Positions 1,693 through 58,800 of a stretch of DNA of 64,000 nt are shown here, in pieces (position 1 is the stretch's first letter; each line of letters starts with the position of its first letter). The notes under the pieces are model-generated. The model was given only the letters and a program-made list of their open reading frames with translations, was not told the origin of the DNA and did no database searches. The DNA is taken from IMG/VR virus record IMGVR_UViG_3300022555_000046; one strand, given 5' to 3'. Position numbers and translations under genes: made by a program. Source of the stretch: a virus.

Positions 1693-1704
1693 TTTTTTGT
1701 CTCC

Positions 1705-2055
1705 TTATTTTGTGTGATAATTTTGGTGCTGATAAATAACGTTACTTTTATCTCTGGACTGTGTTATCTTAACAATACAGTGAGTGAGGATACCGCCACC
1801 GCCCATTGATCTTGCATTGTGGATCAGGAGAGGTATTTTTACCGTACCACAACTCCTGCCGATGGTCCCGGCTACATCGTAAATGTCTCCCCAGTCTTCC
1901 CCGGTCTCTACATTACCCCAGTGAAACCGGACCCGGGTGCGGTTGTTTTTGATGTTTTCAAGAATGTGAATCATTTCATCCGACGTCTCCTCGTTGTAAT
2001 ATGTGTCAGACGATGATACCTTGTACGTTCTGCCGTTGTGTGTTTCTGTTTTCAT
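1705..2055 (-). CDS. conserved phage hypothetical protein
   Basis: 116 aa; GxxWxxxYDVxGxIGRSxGxxKIPLL...GGGxILxxCI pattern recalled from phage proteins of unknown function. Confidence 0.75.
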   Translation of the reverse strand: MKTETHNGRTYKVSSSDTYYNEETSDEMIHILENIKNNRTRVRFHWGNVETGEDWGDIYDVAGTIGRSCGTVKIPLLIHNARSMGGGGILTHCIVKITQSRDKSNVIYQHQNYHTK

Positions 2056-2096
2056 TGCTTTGTGTATTAGGTTATTAATTACGTTAACTATGCCAT

Positions 2097-2179
2097 TTGC
2101 CGTGGGTCCTTGATCCCGTTATCTGTTATCCTGTCGGATTCTTCTGACACTTCTCAGGCGTGGAAAATCTCCACGGCAA
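2097..2179 (-). ncRNA. structured intergenic RNA closed by a 9-bp stem
   Basis: Perfect inverted repeat TTGCCGTGG (2097-2105) / CCACGGCAA (2171-2179) enclosing internal hairpins. Confidence 0.4.
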
Positions 2180-2181
2180 TA

Positions 2182-2235
2182 GTGGGTGGCGGCTCGGGGA
2201 CTCTCCGCTGTATTCCCATTCACCCGGGGTAATTA
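2182..2235 (-). ncRNA. repeated pseudoknot-forming RNA motif, copy A
   Basis: TAATTACCCCGGGTGAATGGGAATACAGCGGAGAGTCCCCGAGCCGCCACCCAC; near-identical to 4146-4200 with two compensatory base-pair changes. Confidence 0.65.
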
Positions 2236-2460
2236 CGAAACCCTCAACTGTCCTGCGGTTCCGTTTGAATAATAAACCTTACCAGTCTGGATATCCAAAA
2301 CCTGATAGTCGTAAAACTCTGGGGATACCTCCCCGTTCCAACTGGTCAGGTTAGAACCTGCACTGCAAGCATCATCCAGTCCTGTAAATGCAGCATGAAA
2401 ATCCCTTACCCCTCCTGCGGGGTAATACTCGAACATGCAGAATAACCAATACCTCTTCAT
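2233..2460 (-). CDS. hypothetical early protein
   Basis: 75 aa ORF on operon strand. Confidence 0.65.
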   Translation of the reverse strand: MKRYWLFCMFEYYPAGGVRDFHAAFTGLDDACSAGSNLTSWNGEVSPEFYDYQVLDIQTGKVYYSNGTAGQLRVS

Positions 2461-2505
2461 GGTACAAAGATTAGGTTATGTGGCAATATTGCCAATTGTT
2501 TTAGT

Positions 2506-2697
2506 TTATTCTTCCTGCTGGTCCAGCACATCGACTGGTGGCGTGTAATCCTTGAACCTCTTGGAGGACGTGTGAAACACGCTCCTTGTTGAGGGATCAA
2601 ACAAACAGGACTCACCAACCCTGATGATCCTTCCGGTCTCAGCACATACGCTCTGCGCCTTACTGGGGACGATTCTGACTTCTTTCTTGATCTTCAT
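2506..2697 (-). CDS. hypothetical early protein (Cys-containing)
   Basis: 63 aa ORF on operon strand. Confidence 0.6.
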   Translation of the reverse strand: MKIKKEVRIVPSKAQSVCAETGRIIRVGESCLFDPSTRSVFHTSSKRFKDYTPPVDVLDQQEE

Positions 2698-2715
2698 AAC
2701 TACTCTTTTAGGGGG

Positions 2716-2961
2716 TTAAAATAAAAATACGTGATACGATAAATTCTTGGTGGCTAATGAATAATAGATGTTTGCGACAATTTTCTTGTCGTTCTGAAGG
2801 GATATCCCGATGGTGGGATTTTCTGGCTCATAGGGCACAATGTCGATGTATCTGGTGCCAAAGAATACCGTTGTGGCTCCGATCTTCAACCAATCATTCT
2901 GAGACAGTCTTTTGGTGATGTATTCTGCCAATTGCTTTGATGTCCTTGGAGGATTTTTCAT
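2716..2961 (-). CDS. hypothetical early protein
   Basis: 81 aa ORF; ATGA overlap with upstream gene. Confidence 0.65.
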   Translation of the reverse strand: MKNPPRTSKQLAEYITKRLSQNDWLKIGATTVFFGTRYIDIVPYEPENPTIGISLQNDKKIVANIYYSLATKNLSYHVFLF

Positions 2962-3230
2962 TGCAGTAAAGATTTGAAACCAGTGTACACATTCTGTCTG
3001 TAAGCATTCGATGCATGGTCCAGCACTGAGGCGGTGAGGATCGAGGTAATAGAGCAGTTCCGTGCCTCGATTTCTGTCAATAATCCTTCAAAGGTGTGCC
3101 CTTTTTTAAGAGCGCAAAGAAGGTCCAGTCTTGATTTAATGGGGGCTGGATTCCATACCCCGGTGACCCTTGCTTGGATGTGGGCATCTGCGATGGCCTT
3201 CACATCCTTCTTGATTCTGTTTTTCGTCAT
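2958..3230 (-). CDS. hypothetical early protein
   Basis: Likely start MTKNRIKK at 3230 after an A-rich leader (track start 3278 falls inside the RNA element). Confidence 0.65.
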   Translation of the reverse strand: MTKNRIKKDVKAIADAHIQARVTGVWNPAPIKSRLDLLCALKKGHTFEGLLTEIEARNCSITSILTASVLDHASNAYRQNVYTGFKSLLQ

Positions 3231-3247
3231 TTTATCAGTATTAAGGT

Positions 3248-3300
3248 TTGTCCCGCCCCGGGTATCGAACCCGGGCAATAGACCAGATCAGCGAGGGGGT
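3248..3300 (-). ncRNA. tRNA-like fragment (acceptor-like stem plus T-arm, no anticodon arm)
   Basis: Minus strand CCTCGCT-GATCTGGTCTATTGC-CCGGG-TTCGATA-CCCGG-GGCGGGA-C. Confidence 0.45.
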
Positions 3301-3302
3301 GA

Positions 3303-3773
3303 TCATTTTACCTGTATTGCAGGCACAACACTTACATTAACATATCCACGGCTGCGAAAACCACCAGCCGCCTTTTCAGCATTAACAGCACTCTGGGACC
3401 ATCCCAGAACGGATCGTTTTATGTTCTTAGCCGCCTTCTCGTACTCGTCAACGTGCTTATTTATTGTTTCTTCAATATACGCTACCCTGTACGGGTTTTT
3501 GGCGATAAACTCATTGCCCTTGTCAATCGTTTCTTGATCGTAGCAACAATGGGATTTGGTCCACTGGAATTGAATATCCACCACAGAGGCATTCGCACAT
3601 TTGTTGTAATAATCCCAGTCTGACCCAAGTCTCTTGATACTGTCAGGAGACTGAGTCATCCTTATGCTTTTCAGATAGTCCCACTCCCCGATAATGGCGT
3701 GGGTATACATTTTAGGGGAAGTCCTTTTTGCTCCCGGGACCTCTTTACAGGTGAAAACGTGTTTCTTTTCCAT
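3303..3773 (-). CDS. hypothetical early protein
   Basis: 156 aa ORF on operon strand. Confidence 0.75.
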   Translation of the reverse strand: MEKKHVFTCKEVPGAKRTSPKMYTHAIIGEWDYLKSIRMTQSPDSIKRLGSDWDYYNKCANASVVDIQFQWTKSHCCYDQETIDKGNEFIAKNPYRVAYIEETINKHVDEYEKAAKNIKRSVLGWSQSAVNAEKAAGGFRSRGYVNVSVVPAIQVK

Positions 3774-3784
3774 TGTCTTCGTTA

Positions 3785-3868
3785 TTAATTATTGAATACC
3801 AGTACGATGATTGTCAGGAGGGTTCCAGCGATAAGCATAAGGATTCCCTCAGTGTGTTTGCCTCTCAT
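3785..3868 (-). CDS. single-TM micropeptide (27 aa)
   Basis: Manual ORF MRGKHTEGILMLIAGTLLTIIVLVFNN; TAATG overlap with upstream stop; fills the operon gap. Confidence 0.55.
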   Translation of the reverse strand: MRGKHTEGILMLIAGTLLTIIVLVFNN

Positions 3869-4104
3869 TATTTGATCGGCTTAAAAGTGTCGGTGATGAT
3901 GTACATGTGTCCGGTCCCTTCCGCTCTTCCTACGAGATTGAACCCGAGGTGGAACAGGTAGTTTTCGGCATCTTCCAGTCCGGTTTCACCGTCACGGGCG
4001 ATCCTTACTGATTGTTTGAAACGCTCAGAGGTGATAATTACTCTTGCTGGCAGGTGTTCCGTTGCTCCAACGGTTCTGACCTTGATAATGTTGAAATTTG
4101 GCAT
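3868..4104 (-). CDS. hypothetical early protein
   Basis: 78 aa ORF after an AC-rich leader. Confidence 0.7.
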   Translation of the reverse strand: MPNFNIIKVRTVGATEHLPARVIITSERFKQSVRIARDGETGLEDAENYLFHLGFNLVGRAEGTGHMYIITDTFKPIK

Positions 4105-4145
4105 GGTTTTGGGTTTTTGAGGTTTGTATTAAGTTGATTAACGTG

Positions 4146-4200
4146 GTGGGCGGTGGATCGGGGACTCTCCACTTGCATTCCCGTTCGCCCGGGGTGATTG
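4146..4200 (-). ncRNA. repeated pseudoknot-forming RNA motif, copy B
   Basis: CAATCACCCCGGGCGAACGGGAATGCAAGTGGAGAGTCCCCGATCCACCGCCCAC; covaries with copy A. Confidence 0.65.
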
Positions 4201-4201
4201 G

Positions 4202-4399
4202 CTATCCTTTAGGATACCCAGTGCCATACTTGTAGTCATTGTTATGCAGCGAAGTGATAAATTTATCATTCGCCTTCTTGCTTTTAAAGATCGCAATACC
4301 AAAAAAGGGCGATCCGTCCCGGTGTGTTGCTACGCCATCATGGGAGTTAACCACGTATTTGGAGCGGCCTACATGCATCATCGTGTTGTACAGTTTCAT
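4202..4399 (-). CDS. hypothetical early protein
   Basis: 65 aa ORF, SD AAAAGGAGG. Confidence 0.7.
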   Translation of the reverse strand: MKLYNTMMHVGRSKYVVNSHDGVATHRDGSPFFGIAIFKSKKANDKFITSLHNNDYKYGTGYPKG

Positions 4400-4413
4400 T
4401 GTTTATCCTCCTT

Positions 4414-4725
4414 TTAAATGAATTGATACCATGTTTCAACTGTTGATACCAGTACACATTCCTGATTGAAGGTGTCCCGAAACCTTTCTGCTATTTCCTT
4501 GGCGGTCAGGCCAGTGATGGCCTTATCCATGTTGATAAAGGAAACAACCAGTGATACTTCCTGAACTTGTTTCCAGTATCCGATCTGTTCTGACACTGAG
4601 AATGCGTGTATTTCGTATTCTGCAAGCATCTTCGCAATTGTTACCTTGGCGGCATCTTTAGCTATTGCATCGCCTTCTTTGGTTGTCATCCCGACAAACC
4701 AGTTGTATTGAATCGCTTTCTTCAT
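4414..4725 (-). CDS. DUF3574 / SAM-lyase-like (PII-type fold) protein, tentative
   Basis: GYWKQVQEVSLVV and IAERFRDTFNQECVL match the G-[YW]-x4-E-x-S...F-x-Q-E-x-V-L pattern. Confidence 0.45.
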   Translation of the reverse strand: MKKAIQYNWFVGMTTKEGDAIAKDAAKVTIAKMLAEYEIHAFSVSEQIGYWKQVQEVSLVVSFINMDKAITGLTAKEIAERFRDTFNQECVLVSTVETWYQFI

Positions 4726-4754
4726 TGTGTGTGGGTTTTAAGGGTTAATACTTG

Positions 4755-4825
4755 TACCTATCTGCTGGAATCGAACCAGCATCCCCGGGGCAAACCCCGG
4801 TGTAATACCGTTATACTAAGAAGGT
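4755..4825 (-). tRNA. degenerate tRNA-like gene (Gln-TTG-derived; 6-nt/tetraloop anticodon arm, bulged acceptor, no CCA)
   Basis: ACCTTCT-TA-GTATAACGGTATTAC-A-CCGGG-GTTTGC-CCCGG-GGAT-GCTGG-TTCGATT-CCAGC-AGATAGGT-A: canonical D and T arms. Confidence 0.7.
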
Positions 4826-5300
4826 CTTCGCAGGATCATTGAAACGGGCACCCAACATACGGGTGATCCTAATCAGTAAGACAACCACCGGACCAACGTG
4901 GAACGGTTAATTTAAGCGGAAACGCTTGTGCCCTCTGCATCATCTGCGGTGGGCTGGAGGCGAATGTCAGGAGTAATGCTGACTTCCGATTATAGTGTCA
5001 CTTAATATGATCAAGTGAACCTGCTACCCTTTATTCTCTGGTGTGAGTCCCCGACTTCACTCATGGTTACTGTTTCTGGATCATTGCACTGACTCACGTC
5101 TGGACACCTGCTGATTCACATCAGGGGGCTTGATCTGGGTTTTCTTGATCCCAGTGTACCGTTGTGACCGTTGTTACTGGGGTGTCAATCTTTCACCGTG
5201 GGAAGGAGGATTTCAGGAAGTCAAAGAACTTAAAGTGGGATCATTCTAAATCACGGGACGAATCCCGGGGGTCAAATGGTGACGCAGTAAATAAAGAACG
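4826..5300 (-). ncRNA. candidate long structured non-coding RNA or leader
   Basis: No credible ORF; many hairpins (CGGGA-TTCG-TCCCG, GTGAGTC/GACTCAC, CACTT/AAGTG, GTCAG/CTGAC, AAGCG/CGCTT, GGATCA/TGATCC) directly downstream of a consensus promoter. Confidence 0.4.
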
Positions 5301-5306
5301 ATGCGG

Positions 5307-5337
5307 CAAAAATAATATGAATAGAGACGCTTGTCAA
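5307..5337 (-). promoter_or_regulatory. early leftward promoter
   Basis: TTGACA-N17-TATTTTTG. Confidence 0.75.
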
Positions 5338-5515
5338 GCATTATCTTTTATTCTGATTCTAAATAAGGAAATACCATGTCAGGAACTGTCAGTAAATACT
5401 ACGATATGTCATCTAATTTAGAATGATAATAAATTTCATACACGACAAAAACAATTATTGTGGCACAGTAGTTGTGTAGGTGTGTGAAATAGATGAAAAA
5501 TATCTCTGGAAACCC

Positions 5516-5546
5516 TTGACAATACTGGTATAATGTTGTATATTTA
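5516..5546 (+). promoter_or_regulatory. rightward promoter
   Basis: TTGACA-N17-TATATTTA. Confidence 0.7.
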
Positions 5547-12870: not shown

Positions 12871-12895
12871 AAAACCCGGGGAGACCCGGGTTCTT
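12868..12895. terminator. bidirectional intrinsic terminator
   Basis: AACCCGGG-GAGA-CCCGGGTT; T6 on the minus strand, TTCTT on the plus strand; lies between convergent genes. Confidence 0.8.
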
Positions 12896-13062: not shown

Positions 13063-13088
13063 TAAAAAACCCGGGAATTTTCCCGGGT
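13063..13088 (-). terminator. intrinsic terminator of the 13145-16840 operon
   Basis: ACCCGGGA-AAAT-TCCCGGGT followed by a T-tract. Confidence 0.8.
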
Positions 13089-13144
13089 CTCCCTGTTCAC
13101 AAACAGGTCACGCATCCATGTGGCTCATCTGCCTCGGAGTTATC

Positions 13145-45596: not shown

Positions 45597-46853
45597 ATGC
45601 CTCCTATCTCGTTTTTACCTCAAGACACAATAACTCCCGCCATTCAGAATCTCGGGCAGTCTCTTTCTGCTATAAGTCAAAGAAAGATGGCTCAACAGCA
45701 GGGGATTATTGACCAGTACATGAAACTTGTGGACGTTTCTCTGGAAGGTACTCAGGCCAATCACCGGGACGAGATACTTGGAGACCTCGATACTTTCAAG
45801 CAGAAGGCGGCAGACGTTTTTGTGAAGGCCGAGCAAAATAATGCAGTCCCAAACTACAAAGACCTTACGGCTATTGAGCAGGATAAGAAATCCATTCTCA
45901 CCAAGGTTACCGATAGTCAGTTGCTGGTAAACAGGTATAAACAAGCCATGTTGTATGCTGCTGAATTGAAGAAAAAAGGGGAGTTAGCACCTTCCTCGGA
46001 GGCAGCATTGAATGACTGGGTTACGACTAAGACACCTATTGCAAAGGCCGCTGACCCAATGACCCTTATTGACACCCAGTACACACCTGAAAAGGCGATG
46101 AAAATTGAGAAGGAGTGGTTCCGTGACAATCAATATGCCGCTCAGAAGACCGGGAAAATGACTCCACGTCCTGACGGAAGTGGATACGATTACACTTACG
46201 GTGTTTATGACGAAGGGGACGTTCAGAGGGATGCAGGTAATTTATGGGACAGTGACAAGGACCTTCAGAATTACTGGAAGGAAAGGGGAGTTGACAGATC
46301 GACATATATAACCAGAAAACAGCAGACCGAGACAATGGGGATGCAGTTGATCAAGCAGAAGGCTGGATTTGGGAAAGTTCAACCATCCACCGGATGGACT
46401 CAGTTTGATAACAGTGATGGTACGACTACCTACACCCCGCAGGTTCTTATAAAAAGGCCATTAACCTATGCTGATGGTACAATATCTGACACACAATTGC
46501 TTAAATTTGTCGAGGATAAATCAACTGGTAAACGCATATGGTATGGAACAAGGATGGTCAAGGTCCCTAAAGACGCAACTCAACAGTATATTGCGGATAA
46601 CCCCAAAAAATACCCGGGCATAAAAGTTGAGACAAAAGAGGAGGAACAGCCTGTTAAGATTGACGAAACAACCCTGTCGACCGATGACTATAATTCTCTC
46701 CAAGCGTATTACCCGAAGGACCCGGGAAAGGCAAAGAAGGTTTCTGAACCAACCGTTGGGTCATTAAAGGCCGCAAGAACGCAGAACCCGGGAGTTTCTG
46801 ACGCTGACTTGATTAAACTGTACAAGGATCAACACAATATAGACCTGAAGTAA
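45597..46853 (+). CDS. internal virion/ejection protein 2
   Basis: 418 aa helical; synteny. Confidence 0.65.
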   Translation: MPPISFLPQDTITPAIQNLGQSLSAISQRKMAQQQGIIDQYMKLVDVSLEGTQANHRDEILGDLDTFKQKAADVFVKAEQNNAVPNYKDLTAIEQDKKSILTKVTDSQLLVNRYKQAMLYAAELKKKGELAPSSEAALNDWVTTKTPIAKAADPMTLIDTQYTPEKAMKIEKEWFRDNQYAAQKTGKMTPRPDGSGYDYTYGVYDEGDVQRDAGNLWDSDKDLQNYWKERGVDRSTYITRKQQTETMGMQLIKQKAGFGKVQPSTGWTQFDNSDGTTTYTPQVLIKRPLTYADGTISDTQLLKFVEDKSTGKRIWYGTRMVKVPKDATQQYIADNPKKYPGIKVETKEEEQPVKIDETTLSTDDYNSLQAYYPKDPGKAKKVSEPTVGSLKAARTQNPGVSDADLIKLYKDQHNIDLK

Positions 46854-49800
46854 TGGACGAAAACACAAAATTACCGCCAATTGATCTTTCTGGACTTACT
46901 GGTGCAAACAAGGGAGCCTCTTTACCTCCCATCGACCTTTCTGGGTTAAAAAAAAAAGAGGAGCCTGTAAATCCGTCCGATGCTTTTTCGATGGATGCCG
47001 GGAAAAACTTAGGAGGCGGGTCGCCTATATCCCCTATCCAGCCATCGTCATCCGAAGATGGTACATCTAAGGCGGCACCGGGACCAGTTGTGCCCAAGGA
47101 GGTAAAACCAGTACCTCAACCGACACCGGGATTCAATACCACAAAATTATCCCCCAAAGACGAGGAGGGTTTCCAGAAGTTCTGGAATGAGAACCCTCGT
47201 GTACAGGCGTGGAAACAGGACCAGAGATTGACCAAGGGAGGAGAAGATTCTCCTGACAATCCAGATTACGACTATCGTGGTGCGTGGAAATCAGGTATAA
47301 CTCCAGTTGCAACTAAAAACCCAAGTACAAAAAAATGGGAACTCAACTGGGGAAACTTTGGTTCAGATGGTCAAGACCTGAAATCTCCGAATAATCCTAC
47401 AAAATGGAAATCCGATTATCAGCAAGCGGTCGGGGTAGACCCTGATAAAATCGGGATCACCGAGGCAAGAGCCAAGGCAGAAATTGCTCCAATAACCTCA
47501 GAACAAGAATACCAAGACGGTTTGGATAAGCCAAAAGACCCCGTTCAGATAGAACGGGAAAACATGTGGCTCAATCAGTCTTATCTTATGCCAAGAATTG
47601 CAATGAAAGATGCCGCTGACAAGGGTGATCTTACCACGGTGGTACAAATGCTCTCTAACTTGGAGAAAACCCGTCCTGCCGATCCCTACGCCAATCAGTT
47701 GCCATACTGGGCGGCAAAGAAAGCCGCAGAAAACGATGCAAGGAATGTAATTGTTCAGTCTGGTATCGTTGATGGCTCTCCGACACCCGATGATGTAAAG
47801 GGAATACTGGCGAGAGACCCGTCAATTTACGATAAATATGGAGTTTCTGGGTTTCTTGATAAGGCACTTGCACTAAATCCCGATGATCCTACTCTTAACG
47901 GGCAGAAGGTTGTGATGGCGGCAAATTCAGGAAACTGGAAGGACGCCCTTTTGTATGCCGACAAACTGATGAGCCTTCCTCCTGATCCGAATAAGCTGGC
48001 TCAGATGGAGCGTGAACATATGGCTTTGGGGGCAAAGACAAAGGCCATGCAGAACCTTTCCCGGGAAGAGCAGGGGTCAAATACCCCAGAGCATACAAAG
48101 ATTATGAATGATGAGGTAGACAAACTTACGGACCAGAGAACGGTTCTTGGTGACGCCATAAAAGAAGAGCAAAATCAGTGGTACAATAGGAGGTCCTCAA
48201 TGGACTATATTGTGGCACAGGGAGTTGGAAATTCATTGATCGGCAAGGGAGTTCAGGCTTTCCTTCCACCGGGATCGACCGATCCAGCATTTGATCCTTG
48301 GGCGGGATACACGCCTTCCACGACTGAAAGTGTTGCGGCAGGATTTGTGAGCCTGTTGATTGACTCCGGTCCGATGTTGCCAGTAGCTGGATGGGGAACC
48401 GTTGGGAAGGGTGCTGCTGAGTTCGGTATGGAAGGACTTGGGGCGTTTTCAGTAGGGGCAAAACCTGCGGAAATGGCTGTTGACTGGGCGATCAAGAAGA
48501 ATGCTTTAAAGGCGGCAGAAAAGACTATTGCTCAGTTTGTTGCTAATGGGATGAGGGAGTCGACCGCCAGAAAAGCGGTTGCGTATCTTTCTGATGAGAT
48601 GATAAACGGAGCCACCGCCAGCGTGATTAAAAACGCTGCCGTTTCCGCTGGTTCTCTTAGTGCCTATGGGATGATGAGCGAAACAGCTACCCAGTTAGCT
48701 GATCCCAAAAACACACTTAAGAGCATTAATTGGAGTCAGGTGCTGAAAAGAGGAGGAGAGGACTTTCTTCTTGGAGGTGCGGTCGGTGCTATTGGTGCCG
48801 GGACTGAAATCGGGAAAGGGTCAGTCGGTGAATGGGGGGCTGATACCGGACTTTCAAAACAATCCATATCCACTCTTAAGGCCAATGTAAGTGCCGCTGG
48901 ATTTGCCACTGAAGTCGGGGTGTTTACGGTTGGTGGAACAATGTTCGACCCAAAGAAACAGTTAAGCGACTTAACATTCAAGGACTTTGTGTTAAGTGCC
49001 ATCCCTCTTGTAGGGCTTAAAATACCTCACATACTGATATCTGGAACGGAATGGGTCAAGGCTCAGAACTTTGATAAGGGGAAGGTGAATGAGGGCGTAT
49101 TCAGGGTAGAACTTACTCCTGACGAAATCAGTCTGATGTACGACTACAAAGGGAGACCGAAGGGTAGGACTGATAAAAACGGAAATTATAAGCTGAATGC
49201 ATTCCCCTCCTCTGACGAGGTCATAAACAGCCTGAATAACGATCCAAATCAGTTACAGTGGTTCTTAAGGTCGGGAAGTATCCCTATTGAGACCAAGGCA
49301 AAGTTGATGTATGCTATTGAGGGTCTTATGCCAGATACCGGAACTCCAGTAGTGTCAAGGATTGATACTAAAAGCGATGGAGGAAAGTCGGTTTTAATCG
49401 CCTATAATGCCGCTGACGAGCCTGTGTTCGCCCGTAAATACGGAGATGCTGACGCTGCCGAGAAGGACGCCATGAGATTCACTACCCTCATCATGGAACG
49501 TCAGAAAAGGACGGACGCAAACAGTATGACGGTCCAGCAGAAGGTGAATATCTCCCAGAGGCTTAAGGCTGGAGAGGCCGATGTTGCTACCTTAAAGATG
49601 GGGCTTGATAAATATGAAACTCCGTGGGACCGCACTCCACTGGAGCAAAAGGAGGTTGACCGATTTGATGCAGAGGTTGCCAAGGAGAAGGAAATTGAGG
49701 CTAAAAGACAAGACGCACTTTACAAGTCTGCTAAGAAGAAAATGGAGGATGGAGAGGCTTTAAGCCGGGAGGAAAGTAATATTGTAAAATTAAGAGACGA

Positions 49801-52800
49801 GAATCCATTGTCTCTCGATGATGCTGTTCAGAGGGTTAGAAACCTTGTCGAGCCTCCTCCAATCGAGACAGGGTTACTTCCCAAGAAAGGCGAGTCAGAG
49901 CCTGTTATAAAACCAGAAATTCCTATCATCCCTGCTACCGGAAGTAGGATTGAATGGGATAAACCGGATGATGGATCGGACCCAATCCTTGGTTCATATA
50001 AACTTGATGACGATAATCATGTTCAGATAGAGCAGGTTACAACACAATATCAAAAACCGTCAAGGATCGGGAGGCTGCTCGGGAAAGACGGTCAGTTTGT
50101 CCCGGTAAGTCCATATTGGGAGGTTAATGTTACGGGCGATAAATTCGGAGAGTCCACTGGGATACACCGTGCGGAAACCCGTGTAGGTGCAGAGAAAATT
50201 GCAAACGAAATTATTAATAAAAACACAGATGAAAACGTCAATAGTGAAAACGCCATCAGGGTACTTAGTCCAGACGGACGAAGGCAAACCGTTAACCCCG
50301 GCACTATCCTTGGAGGAGGCGAAACAACGCAAGAAGGCAATCGACTCGTATCAGGGGAGACTGGCGAAGTTAAACCAAGCTCCGTTGTCTTCCTCGATGG
50401 AAAAGCCTTTGTTGTAAAAGGGATATCGGGAGATAAATTTGATCTTGGGGACGGGAATATTGTTGATAAATCCAAGGTGCTTGTGGTTGGAGATGAAGGT
50501 TCTGGAAAGCCCGTAAAATCACTTCTTGACAGGCCAGTTTCAGAAGTTAATCCGGTCGACATAAACGATAAAAGCCTGAATGACGAGGTTAAGTACAGGA
50601 CAAACAGGCTGAATGTCGAGGTTTTGGATCACGAGACAGCCGCTGTTTCAGCGCAGGTTCTTAATATGATGTCCGATCCTGCTAATGCCGGGAAATCCCT
50701 TAATGAAGTCATTGATCAGGCGGTCGGAGAGTACGAGGCGTTCCGCAAGGTTGATAAGGAGCCTATTAATGGAGCCGATCCCGTAATTTCCAAGGACGCA
50801 AAGGGAAGCGAGACAACCACGCCAAGTTTCAGTCTAAATGACGCTGTTCGCAACAGTCCAAAAAACAAAGGGAACAACCTGTGGGTAAGGATGGACCCGG
50901 GAAAAGATAATTCAGACAGAGTGTTGCTTGTTCAATTTTCAAACTCGGACCTCCTGAACAGAGGAAGATTGACCGGGGACCCGACAGAGTTGTATTATGA
51001 CAAACTATACCGTACCAGACCCGGGTTCGACAGGACGTTCGACTTCTGGGAAATTCCACTATGGATGTCCCGGCTCTCTCATATTGTTGACAAGTCGGAT
51101 GTTTATGTTGTCAGGGATATGGATGAGGCTATTAAGTTTATTAAAGAGGCTGGATACGACAGGGTTGCATTCAGTACTCTTATGATAAATGAGCCACATA
51201 TTTCGAGGATAGCAGAGGAGATTCCCGGGCAGAAAATATCCGTAGGGGGATACACCGAATTCAAATCCTTGAGTGAAAAACCAAACGTTACCGTGTATAA
51301 GACGGTCAGTGAGTTTGCTGTTCAAAATGGATACCCAGATGTTCATGGGTATTCCTATCGTCATTTCAGGGGCACGAGAGTCATCCCCAGACTCAGTATG
51401 TCCGAAGGGTGCCTGTTTCACTGCGCCTTTTGCTCGGAAATTCCCCGGGTTATAACGGAAACGCCCAAAGATATCATTGACTCTCAGGTTGAAAGCATCA
51501 AGGACTTGGATGCAAGGCTGATATATTTGGATGACAAAACTTTCGGTCAGTCCAAGAACCACACTTATCTCACTGAGATTTACAAGAGGATAAAGGAGGT
51601 AAATCCTGATTTTGAAGGCTTTATAATCCAGACAACCGCTGGCCAGATGCTCAAGTTTGACAATCAGTTTCTGGAGGACGCCCACATTAAGTACGTTGAA
51701 CTTGGAATTGAGTCGTTTAACGATCCTATTTTAAGGAGATTACACAAGCCAGCCCTTGAAAAACAGATGGAGTTGGCGGCAGAAAAACTCAGGGAGAACA
51801 AAATAAACTTCATTCCTAATCTCGTTGTTGGTTTCGAGGGGAAAGACAAGGTCGGAGACACTGAAACGGACTGGTCGGAAACGCCCGAGTCTTACGCCAG
51901 AACAGCCGATTATCTTAATAAGAATCTGGATATCATTTCACATATCAATGTGAACTCCCTCGCCCTTTATGACGGGACAGAGTTAAGTGATAATATCGGA
52001 GCAAATATCGAAGGCAATAACAACCAAAATGTCGTTGAAAAGCCGTACCAGAAGAATCCTTCCGTACACAGACAGGCAATACTTGACTTTACAAAAATAG
52101 CATCAAAAGCCCTTGATCGTGTTCCTTACGGACCGGAGCCTCTGGCAAAGCCAGATATGATCAATAGTCTCAATCCTGATGGCACAATTTCAGCCATATT
52201 TGTAGCACCTTACAGGGACCTGAAGATAACCAGCGTAGAGGATGCCACATCCGTCAGGGAAAGACCAGAGTATAAGGCGTACATCAAGGGGATGCATGAA
52301 CTTGGCCGAATTATGAAGGTTGAGATAAAGAACATCGACCACACTATTGGAATTTTTGAAGGCATCCCAGAGGTGTCAAACAGGGTGGAAGTGAATGCGA
52401 AAACCCTTGATGAGGCCGAACAATTTGCCGCACTCCTTGGCGTGATGTCTCACGAAACCCAGAAAGCAACAATTGCCTCCAGATACGTTGAGCCTGACGC
52501 CCCTTCGGACGGGGTTTCCGACAGGATTATCGAACTGGAATTCAAGGTAGACAATGTTGAAGGGGTGCTTAAGGCACTCAAAGACGCTGGACTTGACGCC
52601 ACACTTCTTGACGAGAAGGGAAGAGTTCAAATACTTGATTTCTACGATAATAAGAATGAGGAATTTAATTCACAGGTAGATAAATTTGCAACTAATTTAA
52701 AAGAAAATGGAATCACCATCGAAGATCAAACAGCCAGACCAGTCGACTCCAGATACGTCACCGAAGACAGACGGTCCCAGTTACTCAAAGAATTTGGCGT

Positions 52801-55800
52801 TCAAGTGGAAGACGGACAGGGTGGGGAAGATCAACGTGCGCTTTGGCAACGAGCCACCGAAAGGGATGCGGAATACCGGAGTGTGAATGGCTTAACCCCG
52901 GTTAATTACAAGGACGTACCTATTGAGGAAAAGGTCATCCCGGCAGAAGTTCCTTTAATGAAGGAAATTCAAGCCCTTCAGGAGGCCACCAAGAAAAATC
53001 CCGCCCCAGAGTCTCAGAAGAATGTACAGTCTATTATTAACGGGCTGGCAAAGAAGGCTGTTAATGGACTTGATGCGGTTGTGGTACAGTCTCAGGAAGA
53101 CCTTCCTGCCGACATAAGGGCTGGAATTGAAGGGAATGCATCTCCCGGGGCAAAGGTAAATATCAGGGGTGTTTATGACCCTTGGAACGGGAAGATTTAC
53201 TTCATTGCCGACAATCTTAAGAATGAGAATGATGCCGTGGCCACATGGGTTCACGAGCAGGGGATTCACCGTGGCCTCAGATCGCTGATTGAAAAGCCAG
53301 AGGAATTAGATAAACTGCTTGGGAAAATATATGACTCCGTGGGAATGGATAAGATATCCCAAACCATCGACAGGTCGTATATTAATTCGTTTAACAGCGG
53401 TAAGATCGGGAAAGAAGGTTTGGCCGAGGAGTATCTTGCCAAGATTGCCGAGAAGATCATTACCAAAGAGGACCTCAATAAAATGGAGAAGGGAATATGG
53501 CAGCAGGTTGTCGATTTTGTTCGCAATGCCATAAAATCCTTTATCGGGAAAGACGTGGCTCTTACAGATAACGAAATTGCCGATATCATCAAGGCCAGTA
53601 CCGCCTCTGTATATGAAAGAGAGTCTCCGTTCTTCCCAAGTCAAGGAGGTAATGTCATGCCTCACATGGATGAGTTTATGACCGGGGAAGAGTCTTTCAG
53701 AAGTATAGGAATAAACCCAAATAAGACAAATAACCTCAGAAAAATATATGAGAAAATAAATGAGTATTACGAGCGTAAAAAATGGAGGGTAACCGACAGG
53801 CTTAAGTCGGAAAAGGATAAAAAAGGAGACGAATTAGCCCGTATAATTGCTCACAACAAGAGTGTTAGGCACCAGATCATCCCCAGACTATCTAAGTTTA
53901 TCGCCTTAGAGGTTGAACACATGATAGACACATACGGAATGTCAGACCGTAGCGGAGTTGGCTGGTATACAAAGCAGTACGAAAAGGCTATCGACACACT
54001 CAGTACTGTGTATCCAGAGTTAAAAACAAACGAACATGGGGAGCGTGACCTATTCACAATGCTCACGGCCATTACCAGCGATCAAACCGAGGTTAATGAC
54101 AATCTTCAGGCTGCTGTTGAAATATATGAGGCTTACAAAAACAATGGCTCTAAAAAAATACCTTATGCTACCGGAGGTGGGACAAAAACAGAATCTTACG
54201 ACCTTAATATAGATAGGATAAACGAACTACTTGAGAGTCCTGAATTTGATGGAGACATCAAAAAATTAAGCAAGTGGTTGATGGAAAAAAAGACCGGAAC
54301 TAAGTTTCGTAAAGAGGCAAAAGAACTTGGAATTAAATACAATAGCGGGTGGGAAGATAAGATGAAACTCCCACGGGCTGTTACCGTGTTTGGACCTAAG
54401 TTAGGAGTGTACTTCTCTAATCTTATGGGAGACGAAGGGTATCCGACAATGGACCGTTGGGAGTCCAGATCATTCAATAGATACAGGTCATCAGTCATCC
54501 CTACTTTAAAAGGAAGGGAAGGCTCTCCTGAGTCGGAAGATGTCGGTGTTAGGGCGTATAAAACGCTGATTGGCAAGCCAGACATATCTGATGACGATGC
54601 AATTGCTGACGCAACAAAAAGGACGAGGGCTTACATAAAAAGAAAAGGACCAGACACCGTTGTGACCAAAGACGGCATAACGAAGGTTAAAAAAGGAGGT
54701 GGATACTGGACCGATATCGAGATATTGGTTGGTCAAAAAAAGGGGACAAAGAAAGAGCAGGAGATTGAGTACGAGAAGATTTTGGCAAATCTTGACGTGG
54801 AAAAGGCTCAACGTGACAAGGGCGTGGTCCCGAATATGATAAAGTCAAAAGAGCAATTAATACAAGAGGGGAACGCTGATACTAAGGCAAATGGGATATT
54901 CCAGAAAATGAATGGAACAGTAGATTCCCCAGATAATGCCCCAGATCGAACATTGCAATACGAAACTTTTAAAGAGGCACAACGTAAGTTGGCTGAGAAA
55001 GGGTATAATCTTTCTGTGGCAGATGTTCAGGCTGCATTGTGGTATTTTGAGAAAGACCTGTATATCAAAGCGGGAGGAAGGGAAAATGCTGCCGGGGTTT
55101 CTTATGGAGACGTTGCGGGTCCACTCGTCAAAGGCAAACTCAATACAGGAGTATGGAAAAGTGAGATGACAACCAAGCAGTTAAAAACAAGAGATCAGGC
55201 CGAGAAAGATACGAGTTCTGGGCAGGGAAGGTTGTTTTCAGCAGAGTCAGAACCGATGTCTTCCGAGGATCGCAAGAAATTGATCAACGGTATTACTAAT
55301 GTGTTTGGGAAGTTCAGGGACATTCATCCCGAATTAAAGGGCACTGCGCTGGTTAATGCGTTTAAGGAAAGTGTTGCTAAAACCAACGAGTCGATCCCTA
55401 ATGACGTGATAAACGAGGCTATTTTCGGTAAAAAAGCAAGGATGAAAAAGCCAGCGGATGAAACTACGGCCATAAATAATGCCACAATAGAAAGTGAACT
55501 GGAGGGCAGGGAAGGCTTACAGGCTCTGGACGCTCTCAGGAGACACATAGGAGCCGTACACAGCACGAACGTCTTCGAGGCATATGACATTGCCAAAGCC
55601 GGGGTAAACGCAAACCCAGAGATTCTGTACGGGGTAACAAACAGGGTTCTGAGAGATCATACCGGAAATCTGGTTGACGAGGCAGTTCTTTTGATCCACA
55701 GAGCCATCCTTCGTAATGACGAGATTGAGTATCTGAATAAATTAAAGGCCGAGAAAAGTCCAGAGCAAAGAAGGAAACTTCAGAATGATCTGTCTGAGGT

Positions 55801-58800
55801 TTATCGTAAAATGTCAGATAATGACATGGCAAGCTGGATGATCGGGCGTGAGGCCAGCAACATCTTCCGTCTTCGTCAGACATACGTAAACACGGAGTTG
55901 AATATCGGCCAGATGGAGCGTGAATACATGGCCACCAAGAGTCTTGAGGAATTGACCCCAGAGGCAAAGGCTTATGTTGCTCAAAAATTTCAGGACCTGC
56001 GGGATGCCAAAATAAGGATCGAAGAACTGGAAAAGGCGCATGAGGCAGATAAGGAGAAGATAAGGATCATGGAAGTTCTGGGGACCGGGGGCAGGAGTAA
56101 AAATATGCCAAAGGAACCAGAAAACAGGATCAAAGTGAATGTGGAGAAACTGCGCCAGATCATGTTGGCCGGAATGAAACCATCATCCTCAGAAGAAGGT
56201 CCTGTCAAAAACATCGTCCCGAAAGAGTATTCTAAAAATATGGTTGACGATGGGAATGGGAATTATATATTCTTCAGGTACGGTCATGGTTGGGAGAAGT
56301 ACAAGAACGGGATGGTTGATCCATCACACTGGGGGGAGAATAGCATAACCTCAGATAAGCGTTCCGAAAAGGTTAGTTATTATTACACTCAGCCGGGAGA
56401 TCGTGAACACAACGTTACCGGAGGATTACACGCTGTAAGGATTCCGAAAGACAAGGTTTATCCGTTTAACGATGATCCATTAAATTTCTATGATCAAGCC
56501 CTTGCCTTATTTAGGAAGGATTATGGTCCAGACGTGTCGTTCTCGCCAGACAAGCAGATCGACTACATGAATCCCCTCATTGCAGAGGCTGGATACGACA
56601 TGGTTGTAGCTAAATGGAACGGAAAACTAAGAGCGGAAAGCACGAAAAGCCATCCGATTGACATGGATGCCACAAGAAACGCCAGAGGGGGAGGTGCAGC
56701 AGCAGAAAAAGATGACCTTGGCTCAAAGATAAAAAACAGGATAGAAAAAGAGGTAAATACAGCGTCAGGGTTTGAGAAATACGGATCGCTTTATTATGCC
56801 AAGGGAGGGTCGAAGGCTGATGTGGCAGAATTATTATCAAACAAGGATATAGCAAAACTTATAGGAAAAAAAGATGTCGACAAATACAGGGAACTGGAAG
56901 GCATGTATCCTACGGACAAGGAGGCTAAACCCTCCTCGGAGTCCAGTGCTGATATATCAAGGATCATCAAGGATATCGCTAAGGATCATCATGTTATGGG
57001 CGCAAAGTCGCTGGATGAGATTGTAGAAAAAACCCTGAGTGACGTGCAGCAGGTATTCCCCGAGTTTACCGCCAGAGACATCATGGATCATCTTTCTGGA
57101 TATTCAAAGGAGAATGCTCCAAAGACAAGGAGTGAACTTGCCACGGATATGGCGAACTATAAGCGTGAGGCCGAACTCCGTCTTAAACTTGAAGACACAC
57201 AAAATGGTATCGACACCGGGAAGGTGAAACCTAAACCCCCTGCCGATCCTCCCGAGATAAAGGAGTTGAAGGATCAAATTAAGGACCTGAAAAATGCAGA
57301 CAAGCCAACTCCCGCACAATCTGCCGAACTTCGCAAGAAAGACAGGTTGATGCAGCAGTATGAGGACCTTAAAAACGGAATAACCAGACCAAAGACCCCG
57401 GCACAGCAAAAGCAGGAGAGTCAGGACATTATTGATCTTCGTGATGACATAAAGAGACTTCAGGACAAAAATAAACCCACGCCCGAAGAAAAGAAGGAGT
57501 TGCAGATAAAGAAAAGGCTTTTCGAGAACTTCAGGGACATGGTTGAAAATGGAGGTGGGAAGTCCGGTATTTTTGTCGTAAGAGAAGGTGACTCTGAGGA
57601 TGTTATAAGAATGAAAGAACAGGGAATGGCAGAGGCTGAACGCCTTGGTCTTCCTGCCCGGGAATACAACGAAAGACGTATTAAGTATCTTAACAATCGA
57701 AAGAACTGGGTACAGGAGCAGATCGACAACGAGCAGTTTACCACCCTAAAGAAAGCGGCTAAAACATACGAGAAAACAGATGCCCTTCTGGAGGCAGAAG
57801 ACGATTATGCAAACAAGGTAAACGAATGGAAGACCGAACGTCAGGCAGACCTGAACCGGAACAAGCCTCCGATCCAAAGGTGGACCGAAAACATTCTGAA
57901 ATGGCAGCGTTTCGCTATCCTTGGATTTGCCGGGACACTTGCAAAACTGGCGGCTGTTGTTGGTTATGGCACCATCCTTAAGCCGTTTATGGTTGCTTGG
58001 CAGCAGGTTATCGCTCAAATAACACCCAAGTCAGCCAAGGATCAAATGGATATCTGGGGAGAGGCTCACTGGTCAGCCGTGTCTAAGTATTACGCTCAGT
58101 TCATAAGGAACTTCCCGATAACCAGAAAAGGAAGGCAAAATTGGGCGAACATGTTTGGCGGTCAGGACCCGCATGAAACCCAGTTTGGCAAACCTAATAT
58201 CTTCGAGGAGTGGAATATCGGACAGGGGATTATGGAATTCCCGGGTAGGGCGCACGGATACATCAAGTCGTTTATAAAGAACCCTGAGTTCGTTTACGCT
58301 ACCGAGCAGATTTCACTTAATTACTTTAAGAAGATCAGGGACATCGAACAGAAACTTCGAGACCCAAACCTGTCTTCGGAGGAAAGAAAGTCACTGGAGG
58401 ATCAACATAAGCTGTATGATCCATCGAGGAAGGACGTCCAGTTTAAGATTGGGACCATGTCTTTGAACCATGCGAAATGGTCGATCCTTATGAATGAGAA
58501 TGATTTTATTCAGGGTTTACAGGGATTGTTTGCCAAGGGATTGCCGGGAGCGTTTTTAAAGACTGAACTTCCGATCTTGAGGGTCCCCCTGAATTACATT
58601 GACAGGGCGTTAACATTCAAGTATGGGCTATTCATTGCTCTTGCCGGGAAGAGAAGGTTGGCGAAGGAAGGAATGCCTATGGAGGCACCGGGACTGGCTC
58701 ATCTGATGGTCAGCGGAACCAAGATACTTAAACCCGGGGAGGCTGATATTCTCCAGAGAAGTATTGTAATGGGGTCAATGGGGGCTGGACTTTTTGTACT

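Follow-up and report, generated by a model that had tools for sequence, protein, structure and literature searches.

The 64,000-nt stretch of DNA analysed here (the window) is part of a phage genome of ~73.5 kb, filed as IMG/VR record IMGVR_UViG_3300022555_000046 and present in freshwater and lake metagenomes of four studies. On its minus strand, among genes that we number g1 to g13, lie two copies of an element of about 55 nt, each placed straight after the stop codon of an open reading frame (ORF):

2182..2235, minus strand: copy A, the conserved part of which begins at the UAA stop of ORF 2233-2460 (g8).
4146..4201, minus strand: copy B, which begins 3 nt past the UAG stop (4202-4204) of ORF 4202-4399 (g2).

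The ORF list and our reading of positions 1900-4500 place the genes around both copies on the minus strand as well. Upstream of copy A, g8 encodes 75 amino acids with a T4_Y07C-like Pfam match, and upstream of copy B, g2 encodes 65 amino acids. The copies occupy the 5' edge of intergenic gaps, which measure 177 nt at copy A and 97 nt at copy B, and their distance from the next start is not fixed: g9 (1705-2055) starts 127 nt after copy A, and g3 (3868-4104) starts 42 nt after copy B.

The two copies align over 54 nt with 83% identity (E 2e-9, blastn within the window) and differ at eight places, namely seven substitutions and one 1-nt indel. A covariance model built from both copies with the helices H1 and H3 described below (R1) scores copy A at 82 bits and copy B at 84 bits, compared with 15 bits for the next best site in the window. 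These results bear out a reading made earlier from the letters alone (the sequence-only reading), which had proposed two copies at these positions and had placed both within a few nucleotides of the upstream stop. The flanks of the copies do not align, and because the flanking genes are not homologous we rejected a larger duplication; the element is a discrete unit of ~55 nt. A coding role was rejected as well, since the 1-nt indel breaks every frame and the copies stand in different frames relative to the upstream ORFs; for the latter reason, and because the extensions are unrelated, we also rejected stop-codon readthrough or bypass. Over the 3' half of the element, two plus-strand ORFs with TTG starts (2110-2232 and 4098-4235) share the reading VGGGSGTL with three synonymous differences, but the indel breaks their frame, the remainder is unrelated and they run antisense to the operon, such that these too were rejected as coding. 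Their three synonymous differences fall at the same positions that are explained by the helix model.

In each copy H1 (GGGYG/CRCCC, 5 bp) encloses H3 (GYGG/CCRC, 4 bp, or 5 bp in copy B), and on the 3' side the strands of H3 and H1 adjoin without a linker. H1 begins 7 nt after the upstream stop in copy A and 11 nt after it in copy B, and a third helix, H2 (YGGG/CCCG), is possible in both:

2221-2225 with 2184-2188, minus strand: H1 of copy A.
2205-2208 with 2189-2192, minus strand: H3 of copy A.
2215-2218 with 2195-2198, minus strand: possible H2 of copy A.
4186-4190 with 4148-4152, minus strand: H1 of copy B.
4169-4172 with 4153-4156, minus strand: H3 of copy B, plus an extra A-U pair, 4168/4157.
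4180-4183 with 4159-4162, minus strand: possible H2 of copy B.

Four of the seven substitutions make up two compensated pairs, from U-A in copy A to C-G in copy B within H1 and from C-G to U-A within H3, so that each helix carries one double compensated change, just as had been noted from the letters. The fifth turns a U-G of copy A, where Y stands opposite G, into a C-G in copy B, the sixth adds the A-U pair to H3 of copy B, and the remaining substitution, like the indel, falls in a linker. These changes suggest a structure of H1 and H3, worth about -11 kcal/mol in both copies. Loop bases (10-12 nt in the H3 loop) and junction bases are invariant between the copies while the stems vary. When H1 and H3 are fixed beforehand, the probability that at least four of seven random substitutions fall inside them with all nine pairs kept is 1.2%. 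The pairs of both helices are all Watson-Crick, with no wobble, and the assignment to the minus strand therefore draws on gene orientation and the direction of transcription plus one U-G pair; the sequence-only reading had let YGGG/CCCG favour this strand, and the U-G of copy A and the C-G of copy B are indeed there, but the helix itself contributes that single pair.

Both copies lie in what would be a leftward early operon, which holds several further structured segments:

5309..5337, minus strand: sigma70-like promoter (TTGACA, 17 nt, TATTTT), which would drive the leftward early operon holding both copies.
4754..4825, minus strand: tRNA-like element, its anticodon loop collapsed, which closes the leader immediately ahead of g1, the first early gene.
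4105..4145, minus strand: unstructured A/C-rich leader with a UUAAU-type box and no Shine-Dalgarno sequence, between copy B and the g3 AUG (4104).
3231..3302, minus strand: third boundary module, in the g4-g5 gap, with AUCACCCC at the stop and then a CCCGGG-stem hairpin with a T-loop-like loop (3257-3275).
2056..2181, minus strand: second structured domain after copy A, 126 nt, with a 9-bp long-range closing helix.

From the promoter, this unit runs through a long leader ending in the tRNA-like element to g1 to g13, followed by the replication genes ParB, DnaB, NinG and SSB. The promoter is one of a divergent pair of strong sigma70-like promoters in the control region (5309-5337, minus strand, and 5516-5544, plus strand, with 10/12 and 11/12 matches), each followed by a long leader without ORFs, of which the leftward one is apparently conserved in two relatives, L436 and L437. 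Closely coupled genes of the operon carry AGGAGG, whereas those that follow gaps (g1, g3, g5, g8 and g9) carry a GC-rich structure and then an A/C-rich leader that contains UUAAU and is unstructured. Downstream of copy A, the structured part of the 2056-2181 domain is followed by a AACCUAAUAC leader and then the g9 AUG (2055). The word AUYACCCC stands directly at three stops, those at copy A, at copy B and in the g4-g5 gap. With respect to gene calls, g5 as listed from TTG 3278 would swallow the T-arm hairpin, whereas ATG 3230 gives a protein of 90 amino acids (2958-3230, minus strand) that matches its homologues end to end, and an uncalled ORF of 27 codons for a hydrophobic peptide lies between g3 and g4 (3777-3860, minus strand).

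The closest relatives were found through g13 (440 amino acids, 47-54% identity; L436-L438) and through g5 (90 amino acids, 46-51% identity; L508-L511), the only two genes of this region with homologues in them. In L437 the g5 homologue is preceded by a T-arm-containing module homologous to that at 3231-3302; this module is present in L436 too, and the 3' part of the 2056-2181 domain aligns with it in L436 and L437. Altogether, tRNA-like or T-arm-like boundary modules occur in the window at 4754-4825, 3231-3302 and 2056-2181 (minus strand), in L436 at 2290-2371 and in L437 at 4656-4760, and after each of them comes a AACCUAAU-type leader that lacks a Shine-Dalgarno sequence. Conservation of the T-arm module extends to two relatives, at 51-57% protein identity. 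Both L436 and L437 have conserved, covarying hairpins right after stop codons as well. A long one stands at the stop of the g13 homologue (L436:6442-6520; L437:11252-11330), is conserved with compensatory changes and begins GAUCA(A)CCCCC, resembling the element's own 5' edge. The phage group thus has structured boundary modules of several kinds, of which the element is one, and the T-arm-like modules could mean a tRNA-style punctuation of phage mRNA.

The element was compared with known classes of structured RNA and DNA. Rfam 15 gave no match at gathering score in the whole window, and at E up to 10 across 1900-4500 nothing fell over the element, including hammerhead, twister, twister-sister, pistol, hatchet and HDV-like ribozymes and riboswitches. 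No Rfam family overlaps it, in agreement with the earlier failure to match it to ribozymes or common riboswitches by eye, and as far as tested it seems to be undescribed. With the cobalamin riboswitch (RF00174) it has the words GGGAAU and AGAGUCCCCGA in common; there, however, these words form the nested P3 and P4 of a four-way junction with a B12 box, the element pairs them differently, and cmscan gave no match to the element even at E up to 10; the likeness is chance. The copies also lack the RYYYAAC/GTTRRRY core sites of integron attC when their sequence is read, and they do not resemble an N4-type hairpin promoter (a 5-7 bp stem with a 3-nt loop), given an H3 loop of 10-12 nt in a genome where strong sigma70-like promoters are present.

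To follow the element beyond the window we relied on R1 and on partial patterns. Across the ~73.5 kb genome R1 finds exactly two copies, both inside the window, and it gave no match in 79 TerL-related IMG/VR loci. An Infernal model of the two copies had been proposed as the route to homologues; it recovers both copies, but neither those 79 loci nor the seven closest relatives yield a homologue. The larger collections (IMG/VR, JGI metagenomes and GTDB genomes) were scanned with exact partial patterns only, and for this reason absence elsewhere is not proven. After context filtering, the IMG/VR scans returned chance matches only; those to the 5'-half pattern came mostly from a coding motif (ITPGEWERR...) in a ~210-amino-acid protein of high-GC phages and were rejected. 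Among the metagenome matches listed, most were cobalamin-riboswitch cores, on account of the two shared words, and none had the flanking helices, and none of the 45 matches in GTDB genome contigs had the fold. Neighbouring proteins led no further: g4 found no homologue except itself, and the sole g9 homologue in IMG/VR, from an unrelated high-GC phage, was set aside. Among the kinds of boundary module in the phage group, the element seems lineage-restricted and the only one private to its species.

The TerL of the source phage has only 26-30% identity to the TerL proteins of Cellulophaga phi46:3 and phi18:3, the Flavobacterium 'elemo' phages and Maribacter Panino, and its promoters of a strong TTGACA-17-TATNNT type, together with AGGAGG sites, leave the host open.

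Combining these results, we propose that the element is a structured RNA module, restricted to its lineage, that stands at cistron boundaries and serves the processing or stability of mRNA. We give this reading a probability of roughly 0.38, and it is the most economical one at that level of belief. The element is in our view a real, selected, structured nucleic acid, most likely read as minus-strand RNA; that it works as RNA rather than DNA, that it forms a pseudoknot, and that it has any effect on RNA ends or stability, we infer. It would belong to the leftward early polycistronic transcript and would fold into two coaxially adjoining GC-rich helices, H1 (5 bp) enclosing H3 (4-5 bp), which a third GGG/CCC contact may lock into a compact knot. 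An endonuclease cut, or a stop of RNA polymerase, in the unstructured A/C-rich leader downstream would then leave the compact structure beside the stop codon, where it could block 3'-to-5' exonucleases and stabilise the upstream message. In addition, by sequestering its GC-rich sequence the element may prevent pairing with the leader, which the next gene, having no Shine-Dalgarno sequence, requires in single-stranded form. Since the copies stand at the stop-codon edge and at no fixed distance from the next start, such a role would concern the 3' end of the preceding cistron or the boundary itself. The sequence-only reading had likewise proposed that the element subdivides the early mRNA, and the operon context, with its sigma70-like promoter and several boundary modules and leaders, fits this; the ribozyme that it had also offered finds no positive support, and its pseudoknot is not secured.

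Several known systems resemble the element in part. The RNase III hairpins of the T7 early genes (Dunn and Studier) subdivide a host-transcribed early mRNA and leave protective 3' structures, and like the element they are structured and lie in gaps of an early polycistronic message; they are, however, long irregular hairpins of ~20 bp or more with proven cleavage, whereas the element offers at most 9-10 stacked pairs and a possible pseudoknot and lacks an extended hairpin of about two helical turns. REP elements and other stem-loops of 3' untranslated regions block 3' exonucleases in bacterial operons and stabilise the upstream segment, and they too are GC-rich structures just past stop codons inside operons. 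REP sequences are simple imperfect palindromes in hundreds of copies in host chromosomes, in contrast to an element with two copies, borne by a phage, and a branched or knotted fold. The T4 gene 32 translational operator consists of a pseudoknot and an unstructured leader and controls the single-strand-binding protein's own gene; its compact 5' pseudoknot followed by an unstructured UUAAA/UUAAU-rich leader up to the start codon is similar to the arrangement here, where a pseudoknot is only possible, but the element is followed by unrelated small ORFs, whose starts lie anywhere from 42 to 127 nt away. Finally, the promoter-early stem-loops (PeSLs) of T4-type phages join a terminator stem-loop to an early promoter, and a single genome carries many of them (PMC4122927, PMC2839356). 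They share with the element the form of a short, repeated, structured motif between small early genes in a hyperplastic region, yet the element has no promoter, no U-tract, two copies only and no recombination junctions that we could see.

A number of observations weigh against the processing and stability reading. Only two sequences are available for inferring the structure, and the covariation that the sequence-only reading had stressed, although its two compensated pairs are present, is suggestive at this depth: when the alignment columns were shuffled 20,000 times, 8.7% of shuffles gave at least two compensated pairs in helices that span 4 bp or more and are kept by both copies. Chance helices are common in this element because its sequence is GC-rich with G- and C-runs, and minimum-free-energy z-scores are not significant on either strand, the folds being no more favourable than for shuffled sequence. 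Populations add nothing, since both copies are invariant in ten contigs of other samples (L060-L069) and in contigs of four DNA runs (1700-5400), all sampled strains being identical at both copies. There is no terminator-like site at either copy, and the 3' flanks are not U-rich, so no U-tract follows that would make the structure an intrinsic terminator. R1 also finds no element in the seven syntenic relatives (L436-L438 and L508-L511), and because of this the element is to be regarded as dispensable for this type of operon.

The third helix, H2, is invariant except for its Y, which leaves no informative covariation in it, and it has a second register, GGGA with UCCC. A rival 5' hairpin, CCCG/YGGG, accommodates the same Y change with similar stability, at -9.8 kcal/mol in copy A and -11 to -15 kcal/mol in copy B. 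For these reasons the enclosed H-type pseudoknot that had been proposed, in which H3 does have one compensated pair, is plausible rather than established as a model of H2 with H1 and H3, and a two-state fold is equally possible.

Such a two-state fold would suit a cis-regulatory sensor or operator of the downstream gene, in which binding of a small molecule, or of a protein from phage or host, would shift the balance between the 5' hairpin and H1/H2 and thereby control use of the leader. The two near-isoenergetic folds draw on the same G-run, loop and junction bases are invariant next to variable stems, and an unstructured UUAAU-containing leader follows up to the AUG. Yet invariance over two copies at 83% identity has little weight, the distance to the next start differs threefold with a 126-nt structured domain intervening in copy A, the downstream genes g3 and g9 are unrelated, and no known riboswitch matches, all of which leaves this explanation unlikely.

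We consider it similarly unlikely that the element is functionless, a fairly recent local duplicate of a GC-rich, hairpin-forming stretch whose paired changes arose by chance in a CCCGGG-rich genome. The shuffle P of only 0.087, the 9-fold enrichment of CCCGGG across the genome, where it is used in many hairpins, and the absence of the element from relatives all agree with this account. Drift, however, would not be expected to yield sharp boundaries and identical placement at the stops of unrelated genes, nor to concentrate substitutions in compensated pairs.

A DNA-level feature, either a PeSL-like recombination boundary for gene cassettes or a single-stranded-DNA fold or protein-bound site, seems to us distinctly unlikely. 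Two direct repeats in a hyperplastic region, where g5 and g13 alone have counterparts among the closest relatives, recall the PeSLs, which are repeated terminator-plus-promoter motifs between early genes (PMC4122927), and helices of Watson-Crick pairs only, such as H1 and H3, fold equally well in either strand or as DNA. Against this, neither a sigma70-like promoter nor a U-tract follows either copy before the next gene, helix-preserving double changes are unexpected for a protein site or a patch of recombination homology, no strain has a deletion or swap between the copies, and the early promoters look like host sigma70 promoters, so that a hairpin promoter for a virion polymerase would be unneeded. 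The closest relatives are too diverged for mapping cassette junctions at the element.

Given the T-arm modules of the same operon, the element might instead be a tRNA-like minihelix, in which the stack of H3 on H1 would imitate that of T-arm on acceptor, serve as a substrate for cleavage by RNase P or RNase Z and, together with those modules, punctuate the early mRNA. H3 does abut H1 without a linker, A-CCA follows the 3' strand of H1 in copy B, a tRNA-like element stands in the same operon and T-arm-like hairpins are common to relatives. Copy A has A-CUA in place of A-CCA, though, the stack is 9-10 bp rather than 12, and the H3 loop of 12 nt lacks the consensus of a 7-nt UUCRANY-type T-loop. 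Under default settings ARAGORN calls only 4754-4825 and nothing at the element, and its low-threshold calls are noise on both strands; a tRNA proper was rejected on these grounds, and the minihelix is improbable. We give an equally slim chance to the bolder idea of a new class of small knotted phage RNA, whether ribozyme, nuclease-blocking knot or early-expressed anti-defence decoy, that would act alongside the tRNA-like modules. Weakest of all is an undescribed class of small self-cleaving ribozyme, for which a length of ~50 nt, a possible closed pseudoknot, invariant junction bases and an intercistronic position where cleavage would be useful are compatible, but which has no match among the known self-cleaving classes named above even at E up to 10, a helix order (1,2,3,2',3',1') unlike those of HDV and pistol, no homologues and no positive support, and is therefore very improbable.

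Known from two copies in a single species and lacking homologues, the element is for now a candidate rather than a motif class. If functional, it would extend the devices with which phages subdivide and stabilise early polycistronic messages by a module that is compact and possibly knotted, in a freshwater phage lineage without a cultured relative. The arrangement as a whole suggests an early mRNA punctuated and processed at five structured modules, some of them tRNA-like and common to relatives, each preceding an unstructured leader without a Shine-Dalgarno sequence. While the element alone is of moderate interest, this modular and partly tRNA-like punctuation of the operon is perhaps the more useful lead.

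Beyond the early operon, the window has an unusual word composition. Its 64 kb contain no CGCG at all, against an expectation of about 160, GGGCCC is missing too, and GCGC and GGCC are depleted, while CCCGGG occurs 76 times compared with about 8 expected and forms the stem of many hairpins. Such a bias suggests strong restriction avoidance together with a favoured GC-rich palindrome. Canonical terminator-like sites, each a hairpin plus a T/A run, occur at 12875-12895 and 13070-13090 and are made of paired CCCGGG words. Following the structural genes, a 4224-amino-acid ORF (46853-59527, plus strand) has no PHROG match and, as its only Pfam match, a radical SAM domain at residues 1515-1661.

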